DNA from: a virus
Reading direction: 5' to 3' (one strand)
IMG/VR virus record: IMGVR_UViG_3300017598_000095
Location: 1 to 5,296 of that record
Length of the DNA: 5,296 nt
The notes below the pieces were generated by a model that saw only the letters and a program-made list of their open reading frames with translations, made no database searches and was not told the origin of the DNA. Position 1 is the first letter of the stretch. Every line of letters starts with the position of its first letter. Both the position numbers and the translations under genes were made by a program. Below are positions 327 to 5,296 of the stretch, piece after piece.

Positions 327-1160
327 ATGGGAGACACTAACAACGGAATGACAATGCTATCAGCAGCCAGTAATATAGGCGGGCAAATAATGGATGGAAT
401 AAACCGAAGAGGCCAAGAAAGAAGAAACTTCAGATACCAACGAAGGCTAATGGGACACCAACAAGAGAATCAAATGGCCCTAAATAGACAAGGACATGAC
501 CTAAGCTATGAAATGTGGAAGAAAACGAACTACCCCGCACAAGTAGAGATGATGAAAGAAGCAGGATTAAATCAAGGGTTAATGTATGGAAGCGGCGGAG
601 GAGCAGGAGGAACCACGCAAAGCGGAAGCGGCGGAGGAGCAGGAGGCGGAAATGTAGGAATGTCTAACATAGGAGGAAGCCAAGGCATAGGAATGCTAGA
701 ACGGAGCCAGATAGCACTAAACAAATCACAAGAAACTAAAAACATTGCGGAAGCAGATGACATAAGAGGAGGAGAAGGCACACAAGGAGAGGCGAAAATC
801 AATAAACTCAACGCAGAGATACAAAACGCAGATGCAGATACGGCATTGAAAAAGACACAAGAGCTCGTGGCGCAAAAAGACATCAACGTAAAAGAAGCAC
901 AAACGGCACTACTAAAATCACAAGATTTCAAAACACAAATGGAAGGCGCGATTAAAGAACTAGAAAAGGATAGGGGTGAAGAAGGATTCCTTCAAGGACA
1001 ATATGTAGGCAACATAATTAGCGGAATATTCGGACTAAATATGAACAATCCAGATGACAGATTAAAGGCTCAATTAGTAGTAGGAACAATGATAGGGGCA
1101 AAAATAGCAGGGGACATAAGCGGAGCACTAGGAGGGTTCCTGAGCAAACTAACAAAATAG
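327..1160 (+). CDS. VP2: DNA pilot / minor capsid protein VP2 (functional analogue of phiX174 H), 277 aa.
   Basis: It lies between the small protein and Rep, as in related microviruses. The N-terminal third contains ...YQRRLMGHQQENQMALNRQGHDLSYEMWKKTNYPAQVEMMKEAGLNQGLMYG, followed by a Gly-rich linker (SGGGAGG twice). That matches the family pattern I recall for VP2. A long charged, heptad-like segment follows (KINKLNAEIQNADADTALKKTQELVAQKDINVKEAQTALLKSQ...), then a C-terminal hydrophobic stretch (LVVGTMIGAKIAGDISGALGGFL). This suits a tube-forming, membrane-inserting pilot protein. Confidence 0.85.
   Translation: MGDTNNGMTMLSAASNIGGQIMDGINRRGQERRNFRYQRRLMGHQQENQMALNRQGHDLSYEMWKKTNYPAQVEMMKEAGLNQGLMYGSGGGAGGTTQSGSGGGAGGGNVGMSNIGGSQGIGMLERSQIALNKSQETKNIAEADDIRGGEGTQGEAKINKLNAEIQNADADTALKKTQELVAQKDINVKEAQTALLKSQDFKTQMEGAIKELEKDRGEEGFLQGQYVGNIISGIFGLNMNNPDDRLKAQLVVGTMIGAKIAGDISGALGGFLSKLTK
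591..646 (+). repeat. Perfect 20-nt direct repeat agcggcggaggagcaggagg at 591-610 and 627-646, inside the VP2 Gly-rich linker.
   Basis: Read directly from the sequence. The copy starts are 36 nt (12 codons) apart, in frame, and each copy encodes SGGGAGG. Confidence 0.95.
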
Positions 1161-1169
1161 ACATATGAT

Positions 1170-2156
1170 ATGTGCCTATATCCAAGAATAGTCAAAAACC
1201 CTAAATACAGAGCAAACAAAAAAAACGGGGGGAACATTCCCCCCGTAACAGATGAAAGAAAACTATATGTACCGATAGGGTGCCAACAATGCTTTGAATG
1301 TAAAAAACAAAAAGCAACAGCATGGAGGGTAAGAATAAACGAAGAAATAAAAGAGAACAAAAACGGCAAATTCGTAACGCTAACACTAAGCGATAATTCA
1401 ATAAAAGAACTACACAGAGCAATAAAAGACAACGAAAAAAGATTCGAAAGAATAATAGACGAGAACGGACTAAACGGATACAACCTAGACAATGAAATAG
1501 CATCAATAGCAATACGAAGATTCCTAGAAAGATGGAGAAAGAAACATGGAAAAAGTGTAAGACATTGGTTAATTACAGAAATAGGAGGAAACAGAACAGA
1601 AAGAATACATATTCATGGGATAATATGGACAGATGAAAACGAAAACGAAATACTAGAAAGATGGAAATATGGAAGAATACACATAGGAAAATATGTAAAC
1701 GAAGAGACATCAGGATACATAGTCAAATACTTGCATAAACAAGACGAAAAGCATAAAATATACGAAAGTAAAATCTTCACTAGCGCAGGAATAGGAAAAG
1801 AATACACAAACAGCATAACAGCGAAAAAACACAAATTCAAGAAAGGAGAGACCATAGAATACTATAGGGACCAGTACGGAGTAAAATACGGACTACCGAT
1901 ATACTATAAAAACAAGCTATTCACAGAAGAAGAGAGAGACCAACTATGGACAGAGAAACTAGATAATAAAAAAAGGTATATATTCGGCAAAGAGATCGAC
2001 ATAAGCAACGGAGAAGAGACATATTACAGCAGCTTAAAAGAAGCACAAGCAAAAAACAAAAGAATGGGATATGGAGACGGGGAAATAAATTGGACGAAAA
2101 GAACATACGAAAATCAAAAAAGACTCCTCAAATACAAAAAAAGATGGAAAGCGTAG
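1170..2156 (+). CDS. VP4: Rolling-circle replication initiator VP4 (HUH endonuclease, phiX174 A-like), 328 aa.
   Basis: The N-terminus MCLYPRIVKNPKY is typical of microvirus Rep. A Cys cluster CQQCFEC lies at 1281-1301. RCR motif 1 FVTLTL starts at 1371. The HUH motif HIH is at 1608-1616 (RIHIHGIIW). The two-tyrosine catalytic motif YIVKY is at 1716-1730. Confidence 0.94.
   Translation: MCLYPRIVKNPKYRANKKNGGNIPPVTDERKLYVPIGCQQCFECKKQKATAWRVRINEEIKENKNGKFVTLTLSDNSIKELHRAIKDNEKRFERIIDENGLNGYNLDNEIASIAIRRFLERWRKKHGKSVRHWLITEIGGNRTERIHIHGIIWTDENENEILERWKYGRIHIGKYVNEETSGYIVKYLHKQDEKHKIYESKIFTSAGIGKEYTNSITAKKHKFKKGETIEYYRDQYGVKYGLPIYYKNKLFTEEERDQLWTEKLDNKKRYIFGKEIDISNGEETYYSSLKEAQAKNKRMGYGDGEINWTKRTYENQKRLLKYKKRWKA
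1218..1246 (+). other. Second A8-G6-loop-C6 hairpin, embedded in Rep codons 17-26. Stem ACGGGGGG (1225-1232) pairs with CCCCCCGT (1239-1246), with loop AACATT.
   Basis: It is a perfect 8-bp stem. It is built from GGG GGG (Gly-Gly) and CCC CCC (Pro-Pro) codons, while Gly and Pro elsewhere in the window are mostly GGA/GGC and CCA. It is preceded by an A8 run, exactly like the hairpin at 226-260. The structure is certain and the function is unknown. Confidence 0.45.
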
Positions 2157-2263
2157 AAAGACTGGCGGACTGGTTCTACTATACAGGGGTAATGTCATCA
2201 ACAATAATAGTAGTAATAATAGTAATAGCCACAATATCAACAATACTAGACATACTAGAATAA
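2144..2263 (+). CDS. Putative 39-aa single-pass membrane peptide (MESVERLADWFYYTGVMSSTIIVVIIVIATISTILDILE).
   Basis: ATG 2144 overlaps the Rep 3' end by 13 nt, and the stop is TAA 2261-2263. A charged N-terminus is followed by about 20 uninterrupted hydrophobic or small residues. It falls below the ORF-track length cut-off. Nothing but the reading frame and hydrophobicity supports it. Confidence 0.4.
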   Translation: MESVERLADWFYYTGVMSSTIIVVIIVIATISTILDILE

Positions 2264-2281
2264 ACTAATAAACAAACAGAC

Positions 2282-2386
2282 ATGATAGATATAATACTAG
2301 ACAACGCAAACGAGATACTGCAATGGATACTAGCAGGAATAGTAATATTCAAAGGCATATTTCATACGCCAAAACGAAGAAAATGA
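2282..2386 (+). CDS. Putative 34-aa hydrophobic peptide with a basic tail (MIDIILDNANEILQWILAGIVIFKGIFHTPKRRK).
   Basis: ATG 2282 lies 18 nt after the previous mini-ORF, and the stop is TGA 2384-2386. It has an acidic N-terminus, a hydrophobic core WILAGIVIFKGIF and a KRRK C-terminus. It is very short, so chance cannot be excluded. Confidence 0.3.
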   Translation: MIDIILDNANEILQWILAGIVIFKGIFHTPKRRK

Positions 2387-2475
2387 AAACGACATCAAAA
2401 CAATAATTCAAATAATAATGAGAATCATTATGATAATTAAAGAATGGAAAGACTACCAAAACAAAAAAGACCAAT

Positions 2476-2536
2476 GAGCCAAAAGGCTCTGAGACGTACA
2501 CGAACAAGTTCGTATCTAACGCGCCAAGGCTTGTTC
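2476..2536 (+). other. Structured, GC-enriched non-coding block with three hairpin options. It may be a complementary-strand origin or a regulatory RNA/DNA element.
   Basis: Hairpin A is GAGCC (2476-2480), AAAA, GGCTC (2485-2489). Hairpin B is ACGAAC (2500-2505), AA, GTTCGT (2508-2513). Hairpin C is GAACAAG (2503-2509) pairing with CTTGTTC (2530-2536). B and C share bases 2503-2509 and cannot coexist. My hand count gives 35/70 G+C for 2471-2540, against 13/60 for 2401-2460. Confidence 0.45.
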
Positions 2537-2601
2537 AGGTAGGGAGCAAAAGAAGGTAACAAAGGCAGGTGTAATAGAACAACACAAAACCCAACATTCT
2601 G

Positions 2602-2844
2602 ATGATTACGGGGGAGATAAATAGAGAATTAAGGAATAAAGGGCAGCATAGGTGGGACAAGCTGGAACCAGAAGCACCTTACCACATAAAACAAGACACA
2701 TGCAGACATTGTGAAATAAGACGGAGAAGGTGGTACAATGAAAAGTTGAAATGGACAGAAACAGAATACGTCAACACGACAACAGGAGAAATACACAAAA
2801 CAATAAAATGCAAAACAAAACAAATAACAATATGGAAGCAATAG
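2602..2844 (+). CDS. Hypothetical 80-aa basic protein with a CxxC...HxxxxC pattern. It may be a small Zn-binding or DNA-binding protein.
   Basis: It is the only + strand ORF of 60 aa or more in the 2157-2830 gap, and its A-rich codon style matches the other genes. It has C34-x2-C37, H65-x4-C70 and an RRRR run. I count 18 K/R against 11 D/E. I recognise no family. Confidence 0.45.
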   Translation: MITGEINRELRNKGQHRWDKLEPEAPYHIKQDTCRHCEIRRRRWYNEKLKWTETEYVNTTTGEIHKTIKCKTKQITIWKQ

Positions 2845-3062
2845 CAGAGAAAAAAGAACAACTAATAGAAAGAACGGATATAAAAGATACACCGTTTGTA
2901 ATAATAACAACAAGAGGTAAAAGTTTCGGAACAATGGGAAGTTACCGAATAACGGAAGAATACGACACAAAAAAAGAGGTATCACAAGAATTGAAAAAAA
3001 TCACATGGAATAGAATCGTGCAAGTGATGGAAATACTAACAGAATTAAACAAAGCAAGATGA
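2832..3062 (+). CDS. Hypothetical 76-aa protein translationally coupled to VP1 (MEAIAEKKEQLIERTDIKDTPFVIITTRGKSFGTMGSYRITEEYDTKKEVSQELKKITWNRIVQVMEILTELNKAR).
   Basis: The track ORF is 2751-3062. Its first 27 codons are low-complexity N/R/Q text (MDRNRIRQHDNRRNTQNNKMQNKTNNN) overlapping ORF 2602-2844, so I prefer ATG 2832. Its stop TGA 3060-3062 overlaps the VP1 start ATG 3059-3061 (ATGA). Confidence 0.6.
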   Translation: MEAIAEKKEQLIERTDIKDTPFVIITTRGKSFGTMGSYRITEEYDTKKEVSQELKKITWNRIVQVMEILTELNKAR

Positions 3063-5056
3063 AAACAACAATAGGAGGAGACCGCCTCGGAAGCGGCAGC
3101 AAACAGGAAATAAGTAAAAAGAACTTCGAAAGGTCAACCCACGACCTAAGTTCTAAATGGCGAAGCTCAATGGCAGCGGGAACACTAGTACCATTCATGA
3201 ACTTGGTGGCTCTACCCGGAGACAGCTTCGACATAGACTTAACAGCAGAAGTCGTAACACTACCGACCATAGGACCGTTGTTCGGAAGCTATAAAGTACA
3301 ACTAGACGTGTTCGAAGTGCCTTACAGATTATATAACGCAGGACTACAAATGAACAGGCTTGGGGTAGGAAATGACATGTCAACAGCGTACTTACCAACA
3401 CTAAACGTGTATGCACAAAATCACGCAGAAAGTGAACTAACAAACGCAGACAACGAACAAATAAATGCATCATGCATATATAAATACCTCGGAGTAAGCG
3501 GCATAGGAAGCTTAAACGAAGAAACAGAAGAGGTATGCATAAGAGCATTCAACGCAATCCCATACCTAGGGTACTGGGAAATATTCAAACAATACTACTC
3601 AAACAAACAAGAAACAAACGCATATGTAGTACACACGGCCGCACAAAGTGAACTAAAACTAGCATCAGCAAAAGTGTACACAGCCAATGTACTAGATGGA
3701 GACATGCTAACATCGGGCGAGGAAGGAGTACAGGTAGTGGAACCACAACTATCGACACAAATTAAATTCGTACTGGACGCAACAACGGTTTACTCACCAG
3801 ACCCAAACTACATAACCGTAGAATACAACGGAGACACCGTAACACTAACAGAACTATTTGCAACAACACAATGGTTAACCGATAACGAACTAGTATGTAG
3901 CGGATTCCTAGGAACGGTAGGATTAAATTGCACACTAGCATACCTATCAATGACACTACCAGTAAATTACGGAGGAGCGAGTGAGATTAAACTAAAGTCA
4001 TTCAGACTAAGCAACATCGACAAAATGAGGGAGAAGATATTACAGCACCCATTCGACTCGGGAGCATTCAATATCTCAAATCAATTCCAACCATATACAC
4101 TACCACACGTAACAAATGGAAGCGGACCAAATACAACAAGGTCATGCCAATATACACAGGAAGGTCTAGCAGTAAAAACGTATCAAAGTGACCTATTCAA
4201 TAACTGGATTGATACAGAATGGATAGACGGAACAAATGGAGTAAACGCAGTAACGGCAATTAGTACAACTGGGGACTCATTCACACTCGACACACTTAAC
4301 CTAGCTAGTAAAGTATACAATATGCTCAACAGAATAGCAGTAAGCGGAGGAACATACGATGATTGGCTAGACGCAGTATACGCACACGACAGAAGCAAAC
4401 AAAAAAGTTCACCAGTATATCACGGAAGCCTAATAAAAGAGCTACAATTCGAAGAGGTAATTAGCCAAGCGGAAACGCAAGACGGGTTAAATACAAACCC
4501 ACTAGGAACACTAGCAGGAACAGGAAGGTTAAACCAAAAAAACAAAGGAGGCTACATAAAAATTAACGTAGATGAGCCATCACAAATTATTGGAATAATT
4601 TCACTAACACCGAAAATCTCATATTCACAAGGAAACGATTGGAGCGTAAACCTAAAGACGTTCGATGACTTACATAAACCACATCTGGATGCAATAGGGT
4701 TCCAAGACTTAATAACGGAACAAATGTCGCACACGGACACAACATTCAGCGCAGATGGTGAACATGAATTCAGAAGTGCGGGAAAGACACCCGCTTGGAT
4801 TAACTATATGACAGACGTAGACAAAGTATACGGAAACTTCGCAGAAGCAAACAAAGAAAGGGACATGGGACTAAATAGAAAATATGACATCGCAGAAGAT
4901 GGAAGAATCGAAGACCTAACGACATACATAGACCCTGCAAAATTCAATAACATCTTCGCACAAACAGACCTCAGCGCACAAAACTTCTGGGTCCACATCG
5001 GGAAGAAAATAACAGCAAGGAGAAAAATGTCGGCAAAAGTGATTCCGAACCTATAA
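3059..5056 (+). CDS. VP1: Major capsid protein VP1 (phiX174 F-like jelly-roll capsid), 665 aa.
   Basis: It is the largest ORF. The N-terminus GGDRLGSGSKQ...FERSTHDLSSKWRSSMAAGTLVPFMNLVALPGDSFDIDLTAEVVTLPTIGPLFGSYKVQLDVFEVPYRLY matches the Alpavirinae-type VP1 signature I remember. Later blocks YWEIFKQYYSNKQE and GGTYDDWLDAVY are also typical of microvirus capsids. Confidence 0.95.
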   Translation: MKTTIGGDRLGSGSKQEISKKNFERSTHDLSSKWRSSMAAGTLVPFMNLVALPGDSFDIDLTAEVVTLPTIGPLFGSYKVQLDVFEVPYRLYNAGLQMNRLGVGNDMSTAYLPTLNVYAQNHAESELTNADNEQINASCIYKYLGVSGIGSLNEETEEVCIRAFNAIPYLGYWEIFKQYYSNKQETNAYVVHTAAQSELKLASAKVYTANVLDGDMLTSGEEGVQVVEPQLSTQIKFVLDATTVYSPDPNYITVEYNGDTVTLTELFATTQWLTDNELVCSGFLGTVGLNCTLAYLSMTLPVNYGGASEIKLKSFRLSNIDKMREKILQHPFDSGAFNISNQFQPYTLPHVTNGSGPNTTRSCQYTQEGLAVKTYQSDLFNNWIDTEWIDGTNGVNAVTAISTTGDSFTLDTLNLASKVYNMLNRIAVSGGTYDDWLDAVYAHDRSKQKSSPVYHGSLIKELQFEEVISQAETQDGLNTNPLGTLAGTGRLNQKNKGGYIKINVDEPSQIIGIISLTPKISYSQGNDWSVNLKTFDDLHKPHLDAIGFQDLITEQMSHTDTTFSADGEHEFRSAGKTPAWINYMTDVDKVYGNFAEANKERDMGLNRKYDIAEDGRIEDLTTYIDPAKFNNIFAQTDLSAQNFWVHIGKKITARRKMSAKVIPNL

Positions 5057-5066
5057 ATAAATAAAC

Positions 5067-5296
5067 ATGTACAGATATAAGAAAAGAGTAAAATCTTCAC
5101 TCGACGTCGAGAGAGAGTTGATGACAGGAGAAACAATTGAAACAAAAGTTGAACGCATAACAACTCAAAAAGAGCCAATTAAAGATGGGGCACCAGAAAT
5201 ATTCACACCAAGAAGTGAAGGAGTAAACGCAGCACATAACATAAGAACCGATAGGTTCGAAATAGCGGCGGAAGCAATGGATAAAGTGCATAAATC
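5067..5296 (+). CDS. 5' portion of the junction-spanning small-protein CDS. The full CDS runs 5067 -> 227 of the circle and encodes 111 aa.
   Basis: ATG 5067 lies 10 nt after the VP1 stop, and the frame stays open to the window end. It begins MYRYKKRVKSSLDVERELMTGETIETKVERITTQKEPIKDGAPEIFTPRSEGVNAAHNIRTDRFEIAAEAMDKVHK. An alternative in-frame ATG is at 5121. The ORF track misses it because it has no stop inside the window. Confidence 0.8.
   Translation, partial: MYRYKKRVKSSLDVERELMTGETIETKVERITTQKEPIKDGAPEIFTPRSEGVNAAHNIRTDRFEIAAEAMDKVHK
5176..5296. repeat. Terminal redundancy, right copy, identical to 1-121.
   Basis: Base-by-base comparison, 121/121 identical. Confidence 0.97.

Follow-up and report, generated by a model that had tools for sequence, protein, structure and literature searches.

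A hairpin conserved by base pairing within the Rep gene of a microvirus, and its possible role at the VP2-Rep boundary

The gene for the replication initiator (Rep, VP4) of the microvirus recorded as IMGVR_UViG_3300017598_000095 in IMG/VR spells out a perfect G/C hairpin in codons that the rest of the genome rarely uses. Why should a protein-coding sequence carry such a structure? The window, that is, the whole stretch of 5,296 nucleotides (nt) that was analysed, is a circular genome of 5175 nt whose ends overlap by 121 nt. A sequence-only reading of it had argued that selection acts here on the nucleotide structure and not just on the protein, and had suggested an origin of plus-strand synthesis, (+) origin, a Rep recognition element or a translational brake. 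Comparison with related genomes strongly supports the view that the Rep hairpin is a real signal conserved at the nucleotide level, and most likely this signal keeps Rep expression low.

The Rep hairpin occupies positions 1225-1246 of the plus strand, in Rep codons 19-26 (N G G N I P P V). Its stem, ACGGGGGGA / TCCCCCCGT, encloses the loop ACAT, and positions 1218-1246 read AAAAAAAACGGGGGGAACATTCCCCCCGT (A8-C-G6-AACATT-C6-GT). The pairs run from A1225:T1246 to A1233:T1238, all of them perfect and seven of them G-C; the perfect hairpin of the sequence-only reading is therefore real, with a stem of nine pairs and not eight. Folded as DNA it reaches -11.1 kcal/mol (z = -6.8), and none of 200 shuffles was equally stable. 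It starts 65 nt past the VP2 stop and 55 nt from the Rep AUG. Runs of G6, C6 and A8 occur nowhere in the 5175-nt genome but in this hairpin and in an intergenic twin, and hairpins with a stem of at least 8 pairs and at least 6 G-C pairs occurred at a mean of 0.007 in 300 dinucleotide-preserving shuffles of the genome. The G-runs of the two hairpins start at 234 and 1227, 993 nt apart as had been stated. The use of rare GGG and CCC codons was also borne out. Outside the hairpin, the window uses GGA 85, GGC 15, GGG 15 and GGT 3 times for Gly, and CCA 20, CCG 6, CCC 3 and CCT 3 times for Pro. When the hairpin peptide was re-encoded with background codons, the folding energy was -5.95 +/- 2.6 kcal/mol against -18.9 kcal/mol observed, and 0 of 200 versions were as stable. 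An Rfam search placed no family at the hairpin; the sole match in the window, PrrB_RsmZ, lay elsewhere, with a score of 17.4 bits (E = 0.86) that falls below the threshold of 44 bits, and three relatives that were searched gave no match.

The search of a phage collection found no near-identical record for the window DNA, and Rep relatives in 604 microvirus records had less than 60% identity (tblastn). The comparison was made on 80 IMG/VR loci (50-59% identity), seven genome contigs, six GenBank genomes and 41 further distinct loci (42-51%). More than 100 distant relatives keep the hairpin through compensating mutations. The hairpin is identical in locus L001, whose Rep is 92% identical to that of the window, while the first four distant genomes (Rep 54-59% identical) have a hairpin of different sequence at the same codons, and in one of them a 5-residue insertion merely widens the loop. 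For the measurement of covariation, 83 Rep 5' regions were aligned without gaps; 82.8% of the cells of the 10-pair helix are paired. Double-sided changes numbered 62, compared with 19.8 +/- 9.8 in shuffled alignments, and none of 500 shuffles reached this value. The covariation score of the helix was 0.242, against 0.147 when shuffled and at most 0.091 when the partners were slid. The third base of Asn19 and the first base of codon 26 form C-G in 37 cases, U-A in 31 and U-G in 12, with AAC accompanying Val (GTx) and AAT accompanying Ile (ATT). Likewise, the third base of Gly20 follows the first base of codon 25, as GGG-CCC (Pro), GGC-GCC (Ala) or, in L179, GGT-ACC (Thr). Where Gly20 has become AGC (Ser) or AGG (Arg), in L144 and L180, the partner codon has changed from C to T. 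On a neighbour-joining tree built from the rest of Rep, parsimony requires at least 14-16 switches for each of the two pairs, Asn19/26 and Gly20/25. In L087-L089 the helix is retained though its arms shift register relative to the codons. Covariation had been put forward as the check on the structural claim, and pairing in the stem is indeed kept while the amino acids vary (Pro/Ala/Thr, Val/Ile, Gly/Ser/Arg).

Codon usage in the relatives points to the same constraint. Across Rep genes outside the element, GGA makes up 64% and GGG 16% of Gly codons, CCA 55%, CCC 10% and CCT 15% of Pro codons, and ATA 81% and ATT 12% of Ile codons. In the stems of the 83 sequences, Gly20 is GGG in 60, GGC in 14 and GGA in 3, Gly21 is GGG in 68, Pro24 is CCC in 49 and CCT in 22, and codon 25 is CCT in 27, CCC in 26 and GCC in 12, while Ile26 is ATT in 31 of 32 cases. 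Apart from a lower peak at codon 14, usage stands out from the background at codons 20, 21 and 24-27 only. Synonymous resampling gave a mean energy of -5.7 compared with -17.8 observed, and for 62 of 65 sequences none of 200 resampled versions was as stable. A clade in which Pro25 is replaced by Glu or Lys has no hairpin, and although it retains N-G-G..P, it uses GGA, CCA and CCG. This clade is a natural control, which indicates that the rare codons serve pairing and not the protein. Covariation, codon reversal and synonymous resampling thus strongly support the earlier proposal of selection on nucleotide structure beyond the protein. The hairpin is missing from the GG..PE/PK lineages (L017, L019, L029, L048, L072, L081-L085), from the N(K/N)G lineages (L007, L041, L073, L075), and from L086, L091, L095 and L098. 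The loops of relatives range from 3 to 15 nt and have no common motif (ACAT, ATCC, GTAATA, AATATA, ATT, AGA and one 15-nt insert). Many relatives also have a second possible hairpin, (C/A)GGGTAC-N5-GTACCCG, over R-V-L-M-V-P-V (alignment columns 58-76). Its covariation, at Rep codons ~30-37, was no greater than in shuffles, and it is absent from the window at 1257-1275.

Mismatches in the stems indicate which strand folds. In the 66 hairpin-bearing sequences, the plus strand has 51 G:T wobbles and 3 A:C mismatches, and the intergenic hairpins have 13 G:T and 1 A:C on the same strand. It is therefore the gene-sense strand that folds, as mRNA or as viral single-stranded DNA (ssDNA). Exactly one G:T is found in 47 of 65 stems, so stability may be held near an optimum, while relatedness could yield the same pattern. 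The strand asymmetry also bears on a possible antisense terminator. Read on the minus strand, each of the two hairpins is followed by T8, which the sequence-only reading had overlooked; they look canonical there and were the two best terminator-like sites in a consensus scan. However, each G:T of the plus strand turns into a mismatched A:C on the other strand (51 versus 3 and 13 versus 1), and GGA, the preferred Gly codon, would form a G:U pair on the minus strand, yet it is avoided in the stem. Moreover, the A-run that would supply the T8 is unselected and is interrupted by G in many relatives, and the minus strand has no genes. The G:T/A:C asymmetry, the avoidance of GGA and the neutral A-run rule this terminator out, and we give it almost no credence.

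The A8 run itself (1218-1225, plus strand, Lys-Lys-Asn codons), just 5' of the hairpin, is, judging from its codon statistics, not selected but a consequence of the N-K-K-N motif and of a codon usage rich in A. In codons 17-19, AAA/AAG and AAC/AAT occur as often as in the background (the G statistic is 0-18 here and 140-240 in the stem codons), and codons 16-18 contain 7.45 A on average where the synonymous null gives 7.57 +/- 0.07. Thus the A8, G6, loop and C6 layout said to be shared by the two hairpins does exist as runs of bases, while its A8 part is not under nucleotide-level selection; the AACA common to both loops has no weight. A -1 frameshift or slippage at the A8 run (A_AAA_AAC) was considered and rejected. 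The spacer would be 0-1 nt where 5-9 nt are required, the -1 frame ends after 11 codons (TGA 1253-1255), and the run, which is not selected, is broken by AAG in many relatives.

The position of the hairpin is conserved as well. The VP2 stop (TAG 1158-1160) and the Rep start (ATG 1170-1172) are 9 nt apart on the plus strand, and thus there is no intergenic room for a hairpin between VP2 and Rep. Strong G/C hairpins occur at Rep +50 to +99 in 69 of 84 loci, and almost none occur elsewhere but in a cluster upstream of VP2 or VP3. Where a clade lacks the G6/C6 design, this part of Rep often contains a strong hairpin of unrelated sequence, such as a 14-bp stem in L122 and L137 and a structure of -30 kcal/mol in L124. 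We compared 125 loci according to their junctions, which were called tight when the VP2 stop and the Rep start are at most 12 nt apart. In the 94 tight loci, Rep nt 41-116 have a mean minimum free energy of -22.6 kcal/mol, compared with -5.4 kcal/mol in other 76-nt windows of Rep, and are the most stable window in 89. In the 31 loci with a spacer, the corresponding values are -16.7 and -7.4 kcal/mol, and the same window is the most stable in 14. An in-Rep window of -15 kcal/mol or lower is present in 89 of 94 tight loci and in 17 of 31 spacer loci (Fisher p ~1e-6, uncorrected for phylogeny). In the spacer group, the spacer is often heavily structured (-0.3 to -0.4 kcal/mol per nt); L048 has a 10-bp hairpin there, and the spacer of L097 has a canonical terminator consisting of a hairpin and T5. 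The conserved trait is a stable plus-strand stem at the VP2-to-Rep boundary, whatever its sequence.

Two further kinds of VP2-Rep spacer were observed. Those of L095 (1331-1500), L106-L108, L111-L115, L130 and L141 are 130-260 nt long, G/C-rich and extremely structured, at -0.3 to -0.4 kcal/mol per nt, in genomes that are otherwise A-rich. In the hairpin-less clade (L017:1435-1497, L019, L029, L072, L084), a tiny Arg-rich open reading frame (ORF), MARHRRHRVKR.../MRHRRHRRHRRRR, lies between VP2 and Rep. It recalls the J/VP8 DNA-binding proteins, which have been reported missing from Alpavirinae proviruses (PMC3091885).

The twin hairpin, G6-CTAACAA-C6, lies at 234-252 on the plus strand, 6 nt past the stop of the VP3-like gene (TAA 225-227), and the VP2-like gene sits between the two hairpins. 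Positions 226-260 read AAAAAAAAGGGGGGCTAACAACCCCCCACTTTTTA (A8-G6-CTAACAA-C6-AC-T5), with A8 at 226-233 before the twin and AC-T5 at 253-259 after it, and from its sequence the twin looks like a plus-strand terminator. Intergenic hairpins of relatives start a median of 7 nt past the VP1 or VP3 stop, often have GNRA loops (GAAA, GCAA, GAGA), and have T-enriched tails; the clade without the Rep hairpin retains its intergenic hairpin. The Rep copy had been held not to be a terminator since it has no T-run. The lack of a T-run on the plus strand stands, while the position of the hairpin and its behaviour in relatives suggest a terminator-like or 3'-end role after all.

Dependence on position without dependence on sequence fits a role in the transcript best. 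We therefore favour an RNA-level insulator or attenuator at the VP2-to-Rep boundary, a tentative reading to which we give a little less than an even chance. In this model, the plus-sense polycistronic transcript would fold the hairpin, which would make transcription pause or, as a leaky terminator with a poor U-tract, end in part, and would also hold up 3'-to-5' exonucleases. The hairpin would thus mark the end of the VP2 message and stabilise it, and Rep-coding RNA would stay scarce. We infer both RNA as the acting molecule and the lowered Rep expression. Since the VP2 stop and the Rep start are 9 nt apart, the stem would have had to be written into Rep, with rare GGG and CCC codons in a tolerant linker, N-G-G-x-x-P-P, which accepts insertions in relatives. 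The twin would do the same job after VP1/VP3, and together the two hairpins may produce a step-down of VP1/VP3 > VP2 > Rep. The Rep hairpin resembles a plus-strand terminator in having a 9-bp stem with 7 G-C pairs, a 4-nt loop and a position just downstream of VP2. It also looks like a candidate decay barrier, being a sequence-independent stem-loop downstream of the more-needed cistron and kept by pairing only. Stem-loops without a U-tract that stand at transcript 3' ends and block exonucleases have been documented (PMC13613805), and phiX174 has four leaky hairpin terminators (bioRxiv 10.64898/2026.07.25.740675).

Several observations weigh against an insulator of this kind. The Rep hairpin has no U-tract (CCCCCCGUAACAGAUG); its tail is GTAACAGATG, and a terminator scan of the plus strand omits it. 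T enrichment 3' of the stem is modest in relatives (2.05 versus 1.48 per 8 nt) and is partly due to outer stems, and the terminators of Bacteroidota have been reported to be near-canonical. A 3' end within the ORF would yield non-stop Rep messages. RNA and viral ssDNA have the same sequence, and either polymer may be the one that acts. The association between tight junctions and the in-Rep hairpin, as noted, is not corrected for phylogeny, and the clade with the Arg-rich ORF has neither an in-Rep hairpin nor a structured VP2-Rep spacer. Finally, RNAalifold kept only 3 central pairs when applied to all 83 sequences, because hairpin-less lineages were included; conservation was therefore judged by explicit pair counts.

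An origin of complementary-strand synthesis, (-) origin, is the alternative to be taken most seriously, though we consider it unlikely. Here the hairpin, on plus-strand DNA coated with single-stranded DNA-binding protein, would be the entry for host priming by the PriA primosome, primase or RNA polymerase, and the intergenic twin would be a second, redundant site. Every microvirus requires such a site, the plus strand is the one that folds, and the two hairpins are the only strong G/C hairpins of the genome. The stability of the DNA fold given above would suit this role, if the gene-sense strand is the packaged one, as we assume from other Microviridae. There are precedents in the phiX174 PriA hairpin, which overlaps the terminator T_F, and in conserved intergenic hairpins proposed for priming in other Microviridae (PMC9865509). 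Loss of the Rep hairpin would be tolerable where the intergenic copy remains, as in the clade that lost it. However, a priming site gives no reason to hold Rep codons 19-27 at the cost of rare codons when ~800 nt of poorly coding sequence are available, nor to enter the VP2-Rep spacer when there is one, nor to track the tightness of the junction, and the intergenic hairpins lie close behind stop codons (median 7 nt). There is a small chance that one plus-strand hairpin has two roles, as a priming entry on ssDNA together with the twin and as insulation of VP2 from Rep on mRNA. In that case, the overlap of T_F and ori(-) in phiX174 would have a counterpart here within coding sequence, and in a large Bacteroidales-associated (Alpavirinae-like) clade codons and amino acids would have co-evolved so as to keep it in register with a protein linker.

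A translational brake is a close relative of the favoured RNA-level down-regulation of Rep. The hairpin would slow ribosomes at about codon 14, and the queue would limit re-initiation at the VP2-coupled Rep start. The element is inside the ORF, 55 nt from the AUG, on the strand that folds, with an RNA stem of about -19 kcal/mol, and its association with tight junctions, like the structured spacers, fits any model in which Rep translation is held down. Nevertheless, the hairpin is outside the initiation footprint, ribosomes unwind stems of this sort, and yield usually suffers little from structures located past about +30. A brake would also leave unexplained the twin after VP1/VP3 and the terminator in the spacer of L097, and we rate it as quite improbable. 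The remaining proposal of the sequence-only reading, a (+) origin or Rep recognition element at which Rep binds or nicks, found poor support and is very unlikely. In its favour, the ori(+) of phiX174 is located in gene A, where synonymous sites are constrained by it, and the phiX origin is followed by a G/C mini-hairpin (CCCCGAAGGGG); hairpins serve many HUH Reps, and the plus strand folds. But in the relatives only the stem is conserved, with loops of 3-15 nt and varying sequence; synonymous usage in the flanks (codons 16-19 and 28) does not depart from the background, and codon 27 is variable. The hairpin has been lost in several lineages with similar Reps, and unrelated sequences take its place in other clades. 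CTTGATA, the core of phiX174-type ori(+), is not at the hairpin; such a motif is in a block upstream of VP2. A phiX-like nick motif 3' of the hairpin (CCCCCC-GTAACAG-ATG versus CCCCC-AACTTG-ATA) found no support for the same reason, since codon 28 is at background and codon 27 varies. No conserved nick motif was found in the loops of relatives, as would be expected of the hairpin-loop origins of circular Rep-encoding ssDNA (CRESS) viruses, pT181/pMV158 and M13 (hairpin D).

The block upstream of VP2, ~65 nt long, is the better candidate for a (+) origin, being sequence-specific and much better conserved than the Rep hairpin. Its consensus is GGTACGCATsTGTTCTTATATATCAAG-N10-14-CGCTTTAAAAAAGCGCGAAA, with copies for example at L016:471-535 and about 606-670 of L009; the window has a diverged copy of this non-coding block at 262-326 on the plus strand, directly upstream of the VP2 ATG. 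Its nucleotide sequence is conserved in Bacteroidales proviruses and in at least 66 of 84 loci where Rep identity is only 50-59%. The core of the block resembles the M13 nick region GTTCTTTAATA, and its reverse complement resembles the phiX174 origin CTTGATATTAATAAC (CTTGATAT..TAA.AAC). In L002, L003 and L007 an inverted repeat of 9-12 bp encloses the block in its loop, and in L087 and L090 the block is upstream of VP1 instead of VP2. No consensus fold was found for the block, and inverted repeats flank it in some genomes only. Its motifs had no Rfam match, and a literature search found no description of them. The block at 262-326 may be a (+) origin or a promoter for VP2 and Rep.

As a structural cis-signal overlapping a coding sequence, the Rep hairpin belongs to a known kind of element. 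Like the terminators T_J, T_F, T_G and T_H of phiX174, the hairpins are G/C stem-loops just past structural genes in a genome with its genes on one strand and Rep last behind them, and the intergenic twin also has a T5 tail. Unlike those terminators, the Rep hairpin is within a reading frame and has no U-tract. It is like the phiX174 ori(+) in gene A in that a cis-element is overlaid on Rep coding sequence and constrains synonymous sites. However, the phiX174 ori(+) is an indispensable 30-nt specific sequence without a hairpin (CAACTTG followed by ATATTAATAAC...), whereas the Rep hairpin conserves only pairing, with free loop and flanks, and has been lost in lineages. Stable viral-strand hairpins with compensatory substitutions are also known at (-) origins (the phiX174 PriA site, G4, M13, and the intergenic hairpins of reekeekee- and roodoodooviruses), but those are intergenic, while the Rep hairpin is coding, fixed to the VP2/Rep junction, and enters the spacer when one is present. 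Comparable as well are the intercistronic mRNA-stability stem-loops of bacterial operons and the 3' stem-loops that remain after Rho-dependent termination, which are sequence-independent, stand downstream of an abundant cistron and need no U-tract (PMC13613805). These are normally non-coding, in contrast to the ORF-embedded Rep hairpin. Full-text literature searches found no Rep-embedded hairpin in Microviridae, the nearest being intergenic hairpins in two other clades, and no ORF-embedded stem-loop of this type at a phage gene junction.

All long ORFs of the window are on the plus strand, and this gene-sense strand is extremely skewed, with 44.4% A and 16.5% T. According to the ORF list, VP1 is at 3059-5056, and the VP3-like gene starts at 5067 and wraps around to 227. 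The VP2-like (DNA pilot) gene is at 327-1160; its homologues are annotated as DNA pilot protein, and tblastn matches are weak. Rep (1170-2156) is an HUH rolling-circle initiator (Pfam PF23343 REP_ORF2-G2P, E = 1.2e-12) with H-I-H and YIVKYLHK motifs in the alignment, and Pfam also confirmed the microvirus capsid (Phage_F). No Shine-Dalgarno-like sequence was found in front of the four main genes, and the plus strand of the window has no match to TAnnTTTG, the -7 promoter motif of Bacteroides, while matches on the minus strand are fewer than expected by chance. Cys2, Cys38, Cys41 and Cys44 of Rep (C-x35-C-x2-C-x2-C; window 1173-1301, residues 2-44) are invariant in all aligned Reps, which suggests a zinc-binding module at the N-terminus. 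The N-G-G-x-x-P-P stretch encoding the hairpin is a linker inside this Cys module, and the insertions of relatives also fall there. The window aligns with L001 at 85-93% except in the C-terminal two thirds of VP2 (window 733-1169 versus L001:1976-2586; 277 and 339 amino acids). The right-hand breakpoint of this unalignable stretch is the VP2/Rep junction, and this module is probably recombinant.

Relatives whose Reps are 47-52% identical are located within Bacteroidales contigs (Paludibacteraceae, Bacteroides, Dysgonomonas and Ca. Aphodosoma), and therefore the host is inferred to belong to Bacteroidota. Alpavirinae proviruses are similarly integrated in Bacteroidales genomes (PMC3091885). Four of the integrated relatives, L087, L088, L089 (from Dysgonomonas sp. 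521) and L092, have the gene order VP1-VP3-VP2-Rep, which places the integration point between Rep and VP1 (about 2157-3058 in the window). Use of the hairpins as prophage attachment sites was rejected on this ground. Between the small ORFs after Rep and VP1, positions 2380-2600 contain several short dyads, among them GAGCCAAAAGGCTC (2476-2489) and CGAACAAGTTCG (about 2501-2512). This region is 93% conserved compared with L001 and may contain the dif-like attachment site expected for the group.

Bacteroidales microviruses are among the most abundant gut phages, and our literature searches found nothing on their gene regulation or replication signals. The Rep hairpin shows cleanly how a protein motif and a nucleic-acid structure can co-evolve in the same 22 nucleotides: where Pro has given way to Ala or Thr, Val to Ile, or Gly to Ser or Arg, the partner codon has changed synonymously to match. 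The hairpin also calls for care when such genomes are recoded or codon-optimised. The block upstream of VP2 provides a concrete candidate for the (+) origin of the group. Furthermore, the hairpin would give, through the recoding of four codons, an experimentally tractable handle on how Rep is kept low relative to the structural proteins, or on where host priming starts.

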